From positions 22,458-86,457 of the forward strand of contig CANJVU010000004.1 in NCBI GenBank assembly GCA_947478525.1: a stretch of 64,000 nt of DNA. Direction: 5' to 3'. Shown here one piece after another: positions 8,916 to 10,645 of this stretch. The notes under the pieces are model-generated. The model ran no database searches. It was given only the letters and a program-made list of their open reading frames with translations, and was not told where the DNA came from. This DNA is from Thiotrichales bacterium. GTDB taxonomy: Bacteria; Pseudomonadota; Gammaproteobacteria; Francisellales; CACEW01. The first letter of the stretch is position 1. Each line of letters opens with the position of its first letter. The translations under genes and the position numbers were made by a program.

Positions 8916-9130
8916 ACCCCAACCAGGGCTTTTTGAAATTTTAGAGTCTATTTTATCATCACCCTTGGTTCGCTTTAAACTTCCAATCCGATAATTTTTT
9001 AATTTATTTTAACAGATTTTGATCAGCTCTATCTCTCTGCCCATAAGCTACTCCTCCACATTTTTCATCAGACGTAAACGGTGCTAAATTGTGCTTTGGT
9101 TTGAACCTAACCCTAATCGCTGAGTGTTCT

Positions 9131-9995
9131 TACGACTACTCGTACTGTAGGGACAGTACGCGTACCTGGCTGATACAGCCAGGAGTGTCGTCTGCATTTG
9201 GATTACAACACCAAAGACCAGCCGGACACTACTCCAGATGGGTTTTCTATTATTGAGTTATCTTGTCTGGTTAATTTTCCTTTCTTATGTTTTTATTTTT
9301 TTGTTTTTTAATGATTTTTACTGCACACGAAACCACAATACAGAAGCTCAAAAGCAATAAGCCTCTAGGGTTACACGGCAGTTTTAGAATCAGCACACGA
9401 AGTGCTGAGATAAGAGACATCGAACCAATATCGATGTGATGCGACGATCAGATGCAAAAACTATCTGATCGCAAGTACTAACATTACTCGTTCTGTTACT
9501 CGTGAGAGTGGCGGGCAAAGGCTGGCCGGAACTTTTAAGATAGCATCGAGGGCTACCATCACAATATCTATACTTGAGAACCCAGCTTACTGTTGCCAGT
9601 AAGGGTCACGACTCCAAGGGTGGCGGTGACAATGAACAGACGCCTTTAACATCTAGCGTTTCACAGCATTTCAGCTGATCATCAGTGTTATCTAAGATCG
9701 CATTATAATCACACCAAGATCTAAATGCAAACAAAATTTATTCACAAAAAATGCGGATGCAGTGCATCCGACGTATACCGATGAATCGCCGTTACACGGC
9801 AAAAAGTGATTCATCGGACGCGTGCTAAGCTCAACTTCTCGCCGTGGATTTTTTCTTCACAGCCATCACCGGATTTCTTCTTGGGGAAAGGCTTTAGAGG
9901 CGATGACTATGAACCGCTCGAATTCGCTAAGCGCGCGTAGAGCAACGAGGAACTCTCGTTCCCCGTCACTACGTTTTTAACCTAGTGACGGGAAC
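9131..9995. other. hairpin-dense ORF-free segment (possible large structured RNA or ssDNA-structured cis element)
   Basis: Perfect stems:
- 9141-47 / 9154-60
- 9165-72 / 9176-83
- 9417-23 / 9431-37
- 9445-53 / 9463-71
- 9586-92 / 9597-9603
- 9754-60 / 9764-70
- 9778-87 / 9808-17
- 9962-71 / 9983-92

There is no ORF of 60 aa or more in any frame. Confidence 0.4.
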
Positions 9996-10049
9996 ACCAT
10001 AAGCATGATGAGAATATTGATTTTTAATTAGCTTAAAATAAAGCCTATT

Positions 10050-10077
10050 TTGACAATGAGTATTACCGTGTTATGAT
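10050..10077 (+). promoter_or_regulatory. sigma70-like promoter (TTGACA-16 nt-TATGAT) with AT-rich upstream tract
   Basis: -35 TTGACA at 10050-10055 and -10 TATGAT at 10072-10077. The upstream sequence TTTTTAATTAGCTTAAAATAAAG is UP-like. Confidence 0.5.
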
Positions 10078-10083
10078 GATGCC

Positions 10084-10172
10084 CGGCATTTGATAACTTA
10101 TTAGCCTGCTACAGCGCAACTTTCTCCTCCTCATTCATTGCGCTACACACCGTCAAATGCCACCTCTTTTTG
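10084..10172 (+). ncRNA. candidate ~90-nt sRNA: a single long hairpin with a CU-rich apical loop
   Basis: Predicted TSS is about 7 nt after the -10 box. Outer stem 10085-10093 / 10153-10161 (9 bp) and inner stem 10113-10119 / 10138-10144 (7 bp). Loop CTTTCTCCTCCTCATTCA, then ACCTC TTTTT. No ORF. Confidence 0.4.
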
Positions 10173-10355
10173 CTCAATCGCCACATGGCTCAATAGATAA
10201 AATCACCCAAAGCAGAAAACAATTGGTCGGATACTCAAAGAACAAACAACAACAATAATAACCAAAACTTCAGCACACCCGCCGCACTTTTAGTGCAAAG
10301 ATAAAATTGAGTGGTGGCAAGGCTTATATGGCGTTTTTTCATTTTCAAATATCCC

Positions 10356-10548
10356 GTGGCTGAGTGTGTTACGGTGTTACGCTTGTGTTACAGCCACTGC
10401 AATTACTCGCTTCCAGGATAGAATCTTCAAAATGTATTACAGTTGTAACACAGCGTCAACACCAATAAACTCATCGCTTGTGCCACAGCAAGAGAATAAA
10501 AATTAATCCGATTTTTATCATTTTTTTCTTGTGTTACGTTTGTGTTAC
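10356..10548. repeat. GTGTTAC iteron/operator array
   Basis: GTGTTAC at 10366, 10374, 10385, 10531 and 10542. Variant GTATTAC at 10434 faces an inverted GTAACAC at 10445 (7-4-7 palindrome). The first three copies are enclosed by stem 10356-62 / 10391-97. Confidence 0.6.
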
Positions 10549-10645
10549 ACATATTAAAGGTAGTCTTTCCTAAAATTAACAAGAGGGTTTATATGTTGCA
10601 TGAAGCCGTCACCATGAAATTAGGAAAGTCATTGCTTGATCAGGT

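Follow-up and report, generated by a model that had tools for sequence, protein, structure and literature searches.

The stretch of DNA analyzed here (64,000 nucleotides (nt) of the Thiotrichales bacterium contig CANJVU010000004.1, called the window throughout) contains an integrative island of about 15 kb. Within this island, a segment free of longer open reading frames (ORFs), 8995-10645, separates the plus-strand helicase module from the convergent minus-strand cargo operon. This segment, called the gap below, is the spacer of a satellite-type island of the integrase-AlpA-helicase kind, and it carries an unusual, statistically solid field of hairpins. The 14-nt direct repeat TGGTTGCGGGGGCA bounds the island with copies at 5596-5609 and 20625-20638; the right copy is the 3′ end of a tRNA-Met gene (20625-20701), and rimP, nusA, and infB flank the island on the minus strand (5542 down to 1049). 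Judged from its sequence, the element appears to be a P4/PICMI-like island (PICMI stands for phage-inducible chromosomal minimalist island) inserted at tRNA-Met upstream of rimP. The island and its two hallmark genes are located as follows:

5596-20638, unstranded: integrative island, ~15 kb, delimited by the direct repeat
6713-8488, plus strand: DUF3987 (P4-alpha-like) helicase, no primase domain
19223-20500: P4-type tyrosine integrase with an Arm-DNA-bind_3 domain

An AlpA regulator is encoded on the plus strand alongside the DUF3987 helicase. The minus-strand operon ends at 10646 and codes for Hcp, a LysM protein, and proteins of 124 and 192 aa, and the remaining island genes encode a ThsB-like TIR protein, a POT-family transporter, and several orphan proteins. 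Four large ORF-free gaps add up to about 4.3 of the 15 kb. A metagenome contig of 118 kb from ENA and several contigs from Logan carry the same sequence without any difference, and therefore it is not an assembly artefact. The helicase, NusA, and RimP are each alone in their 90%-identity cluster.

An ORF-free gap dense in perfect stems

The original prediction had described the gap as free of ORFs of 60 aa or more and packed with perfect hairpins. Both statements held. The longest ORF within 8995-10645 has 55 aa, and on the ENA contig, which is identical here, no gene has been called publicly in the gap. All 11 stems that had been listed are perfectly complementary, but two of them are one bp longer than described: 9141-9148/9153-9160 has 8 bp and a 4-nt loop, and 9390-9396/9402-9408 has 7 bp. 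The stems and the sites next to them are arranged as follows:

9007-9792, unstranded: hairpin-rich core with seven perfect stems and the left arm of an eighth
9141-9237: cluster 1, with hairpins 9141-9160 (8 bp, loop of 4 nt) and 9165-9183 (8 bp, loop of 3 nt); DNA z = -5.7
9390-9471: cluster 2, three adjacent hairpins; RNA z = -4.4, DNA z = -6.8
9586-9603: lone hairpin, 7 bp, 4-nt loop (GCAA on the minus strand)
9702-9731, minus strand: promoter-like site, TTTGCA, 18-nt spacer, TATAAT (10/12 matches; a consensus match only)
9754-9770, minus strand: canonical intrinsic terminator, 7-bp stem (5 G-C), 3-nt loop, then CATTTTTTGT
9778-9817, unstranded: 10-bp hairpin, 20-nt loop with an inner 4-bp stem
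9944-9992, unstranded: hairpins 9944-9960 (6 bp) and 9962-9992 (10 bp)

To judge their number, we counted perfect stems, each at its maximal extent, that had 7 bp or more and a loop of 3-20 nt, and compared the counts with 1000 dinucleotide-preserving shuffles. In 9100-10000, 9 such stems are present and 0.78 ± 0.90 are expected, and none of the 1000 shuffles reached 9; the excess of perfect hairpins described in the original prediction is real. The excess rises with stem length, from 5 vs 0.19 expected for stems of at least 8 bp to 3 vs 0.04 for those of at least 9 bp. The whole gap has 11 stems (1.75 in shuffles). For perfect stems, 9100-10000 is the densest 900-nt stretch of the 64-kb window, whose other non-coding DNA has 2.45 stems/kb and whose coding DNA has 1.15/kb. 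The core exceeds this non-coding baseline, which is fairer than the shuffles, about 4-fold (Poisson P = 0.0005), and the whole gap exceeds it about 2.7-fold (P = 0.003).

Folding energies gave the same picture. Folded as RNA, the plus strand of the 900 nt reaches z = -6.9 and the minus strand -6.4, and the hairpin clusters reach -3.5 to -4.9 with RNA parameters and -5.2 to -6.8 with DNA parameters. In a scan of 5.4-20.8 kb with 120-nt windows, 6 of the 19 windows with z < -3 fell into 9100-10000.

Cluster 1 also holds an imperfect nested helix at about 9184-9230. The hairpins of cluster 2 lie at 9390-9408 (7 bp, loop of 5 nt), 9417-9437 (7 bp, loop of 7 nt), and 9445-9471 (9 bp, loop of 9 nt). 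The loop of the 9778-9817 hairpin contains the 11-mer GTTACACGGCA, which is found again at 9370-9380. A U-tract directly follows the stem of the minus-strand terminator only. For the remaining core stems that are perfect over 8 bp or more, the 8 nt downstream contain no more than 3 T, and no more than 3 A stand upstream. Directly downstream of this terminator lies the promoter-like site 9702-9731, which, from its sequence, would drive a leftward transcript through clusters 2 and 1. Consensus promoter matches of this kind occur at background frequency (5 found, 5.4 expected).

Pairing pattern and search for relatives

The stems end abruptly, and the mismatches beyond their ends are unbiased between G:T and A:C. 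Stems containing G-U pairs are hardly enriched: with at least 8 bp, there are 6 on the plus strand (3.6 expected) and 8 on the minus strand (4.9 expected), and with at least 9 bp, 6 (1.5 expected) and 5 (1.7 expected), respectively. Several of them extend perfect stems. Imperfect hairpins, in which one or two mismatches interrupt the stem and a perfect run of 7 is lacking, are no commoner than expected by chance (1 vs 0.68, 0 vs 0.12, and 0 vs 0.20). The core hairpins are all perfect, with no decayed copies among them. Neither stem ends nor fold z-scores favor one of the strands, in agreement with the original view that the stems prevent strand assignment.

At longer range, the most conspicuous pairing was an 18-bp helix, 9205-9223/9673-9691, which RNAfold predicted for the minus strand with a probability of ~0.9. 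It was rejected as being at chance level, as its -26.5 kcal/mol fall among the best duplexes of 20 shuffles (-23.6 to -31.0). Only local symmetric Watson-Crick palindromes exceed chance, and a single large structured RNA is therefore disfavored. A pattern of this kind is expected from selection or creation at the DNA level, or from selection in transcripts of both strands, but not from a multi-domain RNA.

A long structured non-coding RNA, or an immunity RNA processed from a leader transcript as in satellite phage P4, had been the first option of the original prediction. The very low folding energy on both strands would fit such an RNA, and the promoter-like site (9731-9702, minus strand) could drive a structured transcript with an estimated length of ~350-550 nt. 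GOLLD, ROOL, HEARO, OLE, and the phage RNAs of the C4/CI type are likewise long, ORF-free, and strongly folding segments in mobile elements. In contrast to them, the segment pairs by Watson-Crick rules only, is strand-symmetric, has no covariance-model match, and shows no long-range architecture above chance. At the gathering threshold, Rfam found solely a tmRNA and two tRNAs in the whole window, and hence no group I/II intron or riboswitch. The Rfam scan that had been proposed as a check, run for 8500-11000 at E ≤ 10, returned five matches at chance level, with 16-21 bits as compared to gathering scores of 40-70. All signal is local, and the collections searched contain no homologue, so that there is no support from covariation, which would be the decisive test of an RNA. 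The P4 precedent does not carry over either, as P4 has 2.4 stems/kb evenly spread, without a hairpin field, and its cI immunity RNA lies upstream of alpha, whereas the segment lies downstream of the helicase. We consider one large RNA improbable.

A further proposal was that the stems 9944-9960 and 9958-9995 exclude each other and form a switch. It is not supported: the hairpins 9944-9960 and 9962-9992 are adjacent, and both form in the minimum-energy fold of either strand. A 13-bp alternative with 3 G-U pairs in the 9944-9992 region exists on the minus strand only and is much weaker (about -21 kcal/mol for a 46-nt piece vs -31.6 kcal/mol for the 76-nt stretch with both hairpins).

That the field is neither a repeat family (of the MITE, REP, or BIME kind) nor an array of clustered regularly interspaced short palindromic repeats (CRISPR) was confirmed, as the stems are mutually dissimilar and have no other copy in the window and a further 19 kb of the contig. 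The related statement that the hairpins share no sequence holds within the gap, but the arms of 9962-9992 recur at 17750-17791 and in a related island (L006). The only repeats are the 11-mer GTTACACGGCA, with 2 copies, and the heptamer TACTCGT, with 3. We also considered that small genes, each with its own terminator, might be arrayed here, and dismissed this because convincing ORFs with ribosome-binding sites are missing. Integron attC sites and CALINs (clusters of attC sites lacking integron integrases) are similar in that they comprise structure-conserved, sequence-diverse hairpins of single-stranded DNA a few hundred nt apart, sometimes in ORF-less cassettes. This candidate was also rejected: the island stems are perfect and have no bulges or extrahelical bases, inspection revealed no RYYYAAC/GTTRRRY core pairs, and no IntI gene is present.

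Relatives of the island were collected via the helicase and comprised 1 locus from a genome, 80 from metagenomes, and 5 viral ones, together with 2 encoding contigs. Their helicases are 29-72% identical to that of the window at the amino-acid level. In the comparison of homologous islands that had been suggested, nothing from 8995-10645 aligns in the ~90 relatives with blastn or nhmmer. The island's other two large gaps do not align to the relatives with these programs either. A distant-mode blastn of 8400-10700 against plasmid and phage collections gave no match. In viral contigs, the 25- to 27-mers at the two contig break points described below gave 0 matches, and so did a 21-mer that is conserved in the duplicated block. 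Two ORFs of the core were looked up as possible traces of a middle contig or an alternative allele and are not on record.

Nor is the hairpin field a trait of the family. In the 1.5 kb past the helicase, 58 relatives have a mean of 1.9 stems/kb, which equals background. Only L006, the closest low-GC relative, is similar, with 5 non-iteron stems within 800 nt after its iterons. Dense clusters in three other relatives were set aside as unrelated phenomena, namely a true CRISPR array (L075) and GC-rich low complexity (L082 and L039). A related island of the primase-helicase type (L027) has six unrelated perfect hairpins of 7-13 bp within 140 intergenic nt (12253-12390), a smaller cluster of the same kind as the hairpin core.

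Decayed protein-coding genes were assessed in the same way. A BLASTX-type check, which the original prediction had named as a possible refutation, was run as a six-frame search and was negative: none of 66 six-frame fragments of at least 18 aa (2313 aa in total) matched any of 5.8 billion proteins at E ≤ 10. There is therefore no recognizable decayed gene, and no spurious ORF is called in a homologous region elsewhere. ORF lengths are as in random sequence, and decay does not create perfect palindromes. A decayed orphan would escape a homology search, and the cargo genes next to the gap are indeed orphans (the 192-aa gene has no relatives, so that the cargo side gives no comparative handle). 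In addition, pseudogenes have been reported in such gaps of PICMIs (PMC10803314). On balance, we regard gene decay as highly improbable. The best-supported reading of these results is that the segment is not a large RNA, a known RNA family, a repeat family or CRISPR array, or a recognizable decayed gene.

Iterons, contig breaks, and the right third of the gap

The hairpin field adjoins the presumed replication origin of the island, where two features are found:

8486-8960, unstranded: iteron block directly 3′ of the helicase gene
8937-9030: AT-rich tract (72% AT) between iterons and hairpin field

The iteron block consists of two direct repeats of ~103 nt (8526-8628 and 8814-8916, 89% identical), within which CTGCCAAAA-type iterons occur in both orientations. 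Its 8500-8940 portion is the only intergenic DNA shared with the ~90 related islands. The cis-replication region (crr) of P4 is likewise located just after alpha and has two 120-bp direct repeats with inverted type-1 iterons; the iteron sequence differs, being TGTTCACC in P4 and CTGCCAAAA in the island. By this analogy, 8486-8960 is the probable replication origin or cis-replication region. Two ORFs over the iterons, 8472-8798 (108 aa) and 8590-8994 (134 aa), are probably spurious, and the former has no Pfam or PHROG match. The AT-rich tract 8937-9030 is a candidate unwinding region. The hairpin field begins ~180 nt beyond the iterons with AT-rich tracts flanking it, and a second such tract follows cluster 1 (9240-9320, 79% AT, 64% T).

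This neighborhood bears on the second option of the original prediction, according to which the hairpins act in single-stranded or unwound DNA by the origin, either as single-strand initiation (ssi) signals of the G4 or PriA type for priming, or in packaging or fork control. In its favor, the stems are Watson-Crick-only and lie near the iterons, they fold better under DNA parameters (z = -5.2 to -6.8), and the hairpins of L006 also stand right after iterons. The DUF3987 protein of the island lacks the Toprim or primase domain that many relatives have, and domain searches of the island ORFs found no primase. The groups of two or three stem-loops in ORF-free DNA on the origin side resemble known ssi signals and the filamentous-phage intergenic region, which would be the closest analogues under this explanation. 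Known ssi signals, however, occur in replicons that pass through a single-stranded stage, and they are strand-specific, imperfect, and 60-500 nt long. Of such a stage there is no sign in the island, as no HUH Rep or relaxase was seen among its protein annotations. Moreover, no strand preference is visible, the hairpins reach ~1 kb from the iterons, and relatives with a similar primase-less helicase (~540 aa, e.g., L007) have no hairpin field. We rate this option as possible but doubtful.

Where short-read contigs from Logan contain the flanking genes, their sequence does not differ from that of the window. They are given here with the part of the window that they cover:

2510-9006: L195 (SRR6787039)
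7263-9006: L196 (ERR3761218)
7343-9006: L197 (ERR3761215)
9793-13546: L003 (SRR6787039 and one more sample)
9793-11353: L005 (ERR3761219)
starting at 10442: L004 (ERR3761218)

The left-flank contigs, three in number, all stop precisely at 9006, and of the three on the right flank, two begin precisely at 9793. These breaks recur in at least four sequencing runs, whereas the other contig ends scatter. Recurrent ends indicate a branch of the assembly graph, which means that either strains differ in 9007-9792 or a repeat spanning ~8977-9822 exists elsewhere. Together, this suggests indirectly that the core 9007-9792 varies between co-occurring strains. The core thus has the appearance of a young block that turns over rapidly, which fits the missing relatives and the missing decayed stems.

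The right break, 9793, is located inside the loop of the 10-bp hairpin, within the 11-mer that is repeated at 9370. A clean deletion leaving a simple empty site was excluded because 9007 and 9793 are both T, and neither an inversion nor recombination between the GTTACACGGCA copies fits the exact break positions. In SRR6787039, contigs also break in the N-terminal region of infB, where L201 ends near 2375 and L195 starts at 2510 (2376-2509 of the window), which shows that co-occurring strains differ at some other loci too.

The exact breaks raise the question of whether an ORF-less mobile or exchangeable cassette of ~0.8 kb lies between origin and cargo, be it a non-autonomous hairpin-ended element or a swapped module. 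Both junctions read TA, and the contigs are unbroken for 6.5 kb to the left of 9006 (SRR6787039) and for 3.7 kb to the right of 9793. On the other hand, there are no terminal inverted repeats at the break points and no second copy of the core in 83 kb of the same contig; a transposase or recombinase partner besides the P4-type integrase is missing, and the absence of a simple empty site, of attC core sites (by inspection), and of matches in viral contigs speaks against it as well. Such a cassette is quite unlikely.

Another explanation is non-functional, evolutionarily young filler, in the form of neutral DNA beside an origin, in which the palindromes stem from fold-back or template-switch errors (quasi-palindrome correction) or from a recent, unsampled source. 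No collection searched contains a relative, the block seems to differ between co-occurring strains, and every stem is perfect with none decayed, as expected if all are recent. The stop-to-stop ORF lengths match random expectation (partly our own estimate), and the authors of the PICMI study regard large non-coding regions as non-functional (PMC10803314). Set against this are the 12-fold excess over shuffles and the 4-fold excess over other non-coding DNA, which need an active generating process, and a density that P4 lacks and that is seen past the helicase in just 1 of 58 relatives (L006). The stems are also balanced in G+C, have short loops, and are clustered in twos and threes. We consider filler quite possible, though well short of an even chance.

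To the right of the core and in another large non-coding gap of the island, the following features are found:

17750-17791: second CGTCACTA palindrome, in the other large non-coding gap; 16-bp perfect stem, z = -7.3
10050-10172, plus strand: predicted promoter and ~90-nt small-RNA-like unit; fold z = -3.7
10171-10420: duplicated block, ~70% identical to the reverse complement of 18140-18395
10366-10550: array of ~8 TGTGTTAC-type repeats, direct and inverted

The hairpin 9962-9992 is a palindrome of the form CGTCACTA...TAGTGACG. Besides the second copy in the island, its arms occur twice in L006 (9674-9703 and 9858-9890), just after the iterons, and among the ~90 related loci, the family is limited to these two islands. 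The spacing from GTCACTA to TAGTGAC is 11-16 nt, and the loops are unrelated. Arms that are conserved while loops are free favor sequence-specific recognition of the stem over a covarying RNA helix, and, as far as the sequence tells, argue for a protein that would bind it on duplex DNA, hairpin DNA, or RNA. In viral contigs, the CGTCACTA pattern gave 100 matches, which is an estimated chance level for 16 specified bases and hence uninformative.

10050-10172: The predicted promoter (10050-10077) is strong and sigma-70-like and is the best match of the region, with TTGACA, a 16-nt spacer, and TG-TATGAT (11/12, extended TG). The ~90-nt unit behind it has a terminator-like fold, with a 10-bp closing stem, a 7-bp inner hairpin that exposes an 18-nt CU-rich loop, and then U5. 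As modeled, it is a candidate small RNA whose CU-rich loop would resemble an anti-Shine-Dalgarno sequence. On the opposite strand, GAGGAGGAG is followed by short ORFs.

10171-10420: The two copies of the block contain small hydrophobic ORFs of 35 and 38 aa, which are ~34% identical and broken by frame-shifting indels. A role as type I toxins was considered, but it is weakened by these indels and by the low amino-acid identity (~34%) relative to the 70% nucleotide identity. Three short repeats follow the block at equal spacing and read TGTGTTAC here and GCATTGC in the paralogous copy, a difference suggestive of swapped binding specificity in an array of regulatory sites or iterons.

10366-10550: All 5 exact GTGTTAC copies of the 64-kb window are located within 10366-10548. 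The three GTTACAC heptamers, at 9370, 9791, and 10544, are without exception located in the gap.

The right third of the gap is a regulatory module separate from the hairpin field.

Possible role of the stems and comparison with known systems

In the interpretation that we favor, at a probability of roughly 30%, the stems act individually on transcripts arriving from both sides, as barriers or pause sites and as stabilizers of 3′ ends. The gap would be a composite non-coding spacer, with the plus-strand module of iteron origin and helicase on one side and the minus-strand cargo operon on the other. Its left ~0.8 kb would constitute a young, lineage-restricted, and probably strain-variable block of about ten independent, DNA-symmetric palindromes, which would work singly as local stem-loops and not as one folded molecule. 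If transcription enters the gap from both sides, each stem must form in both transcripts, and it would therefore consist of Watson-Crick pairs only. The stems would halt or pause read-through, protect RNA 3′ ends, and shield the module of origin and helicase from the cargo operon that converges on it, like the palindromes of REP/BIME (repetitive extragenic palindromes and bacterial interspersed mosaic elements) and bidirectional terminators. The right ~0.65 kb, with the CGTCACTA palindrome, the predicted promoter and its ~90-nt unit, the duplicated block, and the TGTGTTAC array, would be a separate module. We infer two-strand transcription, the barrier or stabilizer role, and strain variability; what is observed is the anatomy with its statistics, the setting within the island, and the lack of both relatives and a higher-order RNA signal.

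Several observations speak for this role. The gap lies between convergent units, and one stem is a minus-strand terminator with a promoter-like site immediately after it. Perfect local stems alone are enriched, the two strands are equal, and long-range pairing is at chance. The CGTCACTA arms are conserved with variable loops in two islands, and in L006, hairpins also follow the iterons. Other observations weigh against it. Just 1 of ~10 stems has a U-tract, so that most are not canonical terminators, and ten stems far exceed what insulation needs. Such a field is missing from 57 of the 58 related islands. The calls of promoters are matches to a consensus and occur at the background frequency reported above, and strain variability rests solely on the positions of contig ends.

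Two rivals are nearly as likely as the role of the stems in transcripts, namely non-functional young DNA and hairpins in unwound or single-stranded DNA. A bolder alternative combines elements of several explanations: the core would be an exchangeable cassette whose stems are recognized as single-stranded or extruded DNA for origin-proximal priming or packaging of a primase-less P4-like replicon, or it would itself be a novel type of ORF-less hairpin-ended element. The conserved arms and variable loops of the CGTCACTA palindromes hint at structure recognition in DNA. We hold this alternative to be unlikely. If it were true, co-occurring strains would vary because a cis element specified by its structure turns over rapidly.

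REP/BIME: REP/BIME palindromes and bidirectional terminators would be the closest functional analogues of stems acting on transcripts. They, too, comprise short, G+C-balanced, perfect stem-loops clustered between convergent genes, and they are able to act on either transcript as attenuators or 3′-end stabilizers. In contrast to REPs, which share a genome-wide consensus, the island stems are mutually unrelated and have no other copy in 83 kb.

P4: The island shares with P4 an integrase of the P4 type at a tRNA gene, an AlpA/Vis-like regulator, an alpha-like helicase, and crr-like iterons. It differs in having no primase domain, and no homologues of psu, delta, or sid were recognized by Pfam or PHROGs among the island ORFs tested.

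PICMI: PICMI satellites consist of int, alpA, and a DUF3987/DUF5906 primase and are integrated next to fis (PMC10803314). Satellites of the int-alpA-DUF3987 type are known to have large non-coding regions, which are reported to contain small ORFs or pseudogenes and to have unknown or no function (PMC10803314). The island has the same three core genes and a conspicuous non-coding fraction. It is integrated at tRNA-Met and not at fis, which places it outside the PICMI definition, and it is larger (15 kb vs ~6 kb). It also differs by its cargo, which is of the type VI secretion system (T6SS) kind (Hcp, LysM) and includes a TIR protein. To our knowledge, no hairpin enrichment has been reported for PICMIs.

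Some features of the cargo and of the chromosome outside the gap were noted along the way. On the minus strand, 10646-13159 encodes an orphan Hcp, a protein that combines a LysM domain with a hydrophobic C-terminus, and two small proteins that are orphans as well; by sequence, this group resembles an effector/immunity set of a T6SS. Next to the integrase, 18515-19219 (minus strand) encodes a ThsB-like TIR protein that stands alone. The tmRNA gene (51086-51501, minus strand) has an unusual predicted tag peptide ending in ...ANDAVIQVTRKKAA (ARAGORN), consistent with a poorly sampled lineage. Two long perfect palindromes at 27276-27304 and 53088-53118 have stems of 13 and 14 bp, 3-nt loops, and TCAAA...TTTGA ends; they may represent a chromosomal operator or hairpin motif.

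Islands with an integrase, AlpA, and a helicase are abundant and carry defense or competition cargo, and their large non-coding stretches are usually dismissed. The case described here shows that such a stretch can be strongly non-random, with a crr-like origin, a field of perfect stem-loops, sequence-specific palindromes, and duplicated modules with swapped repeats. The hairpin field may even be the most variable part of the element in nature. At present, it stands as a well-documented oddity in an unsampled lineage and not as a demonstrated new system. If the stems are mutational by-products, they provide an unusually clear case of palindrome genesis beside an origin. If they act in cis, through insulation, priming, or recognition of hairpin DNA, they would represent a structure-encoded layer of control in satellites.

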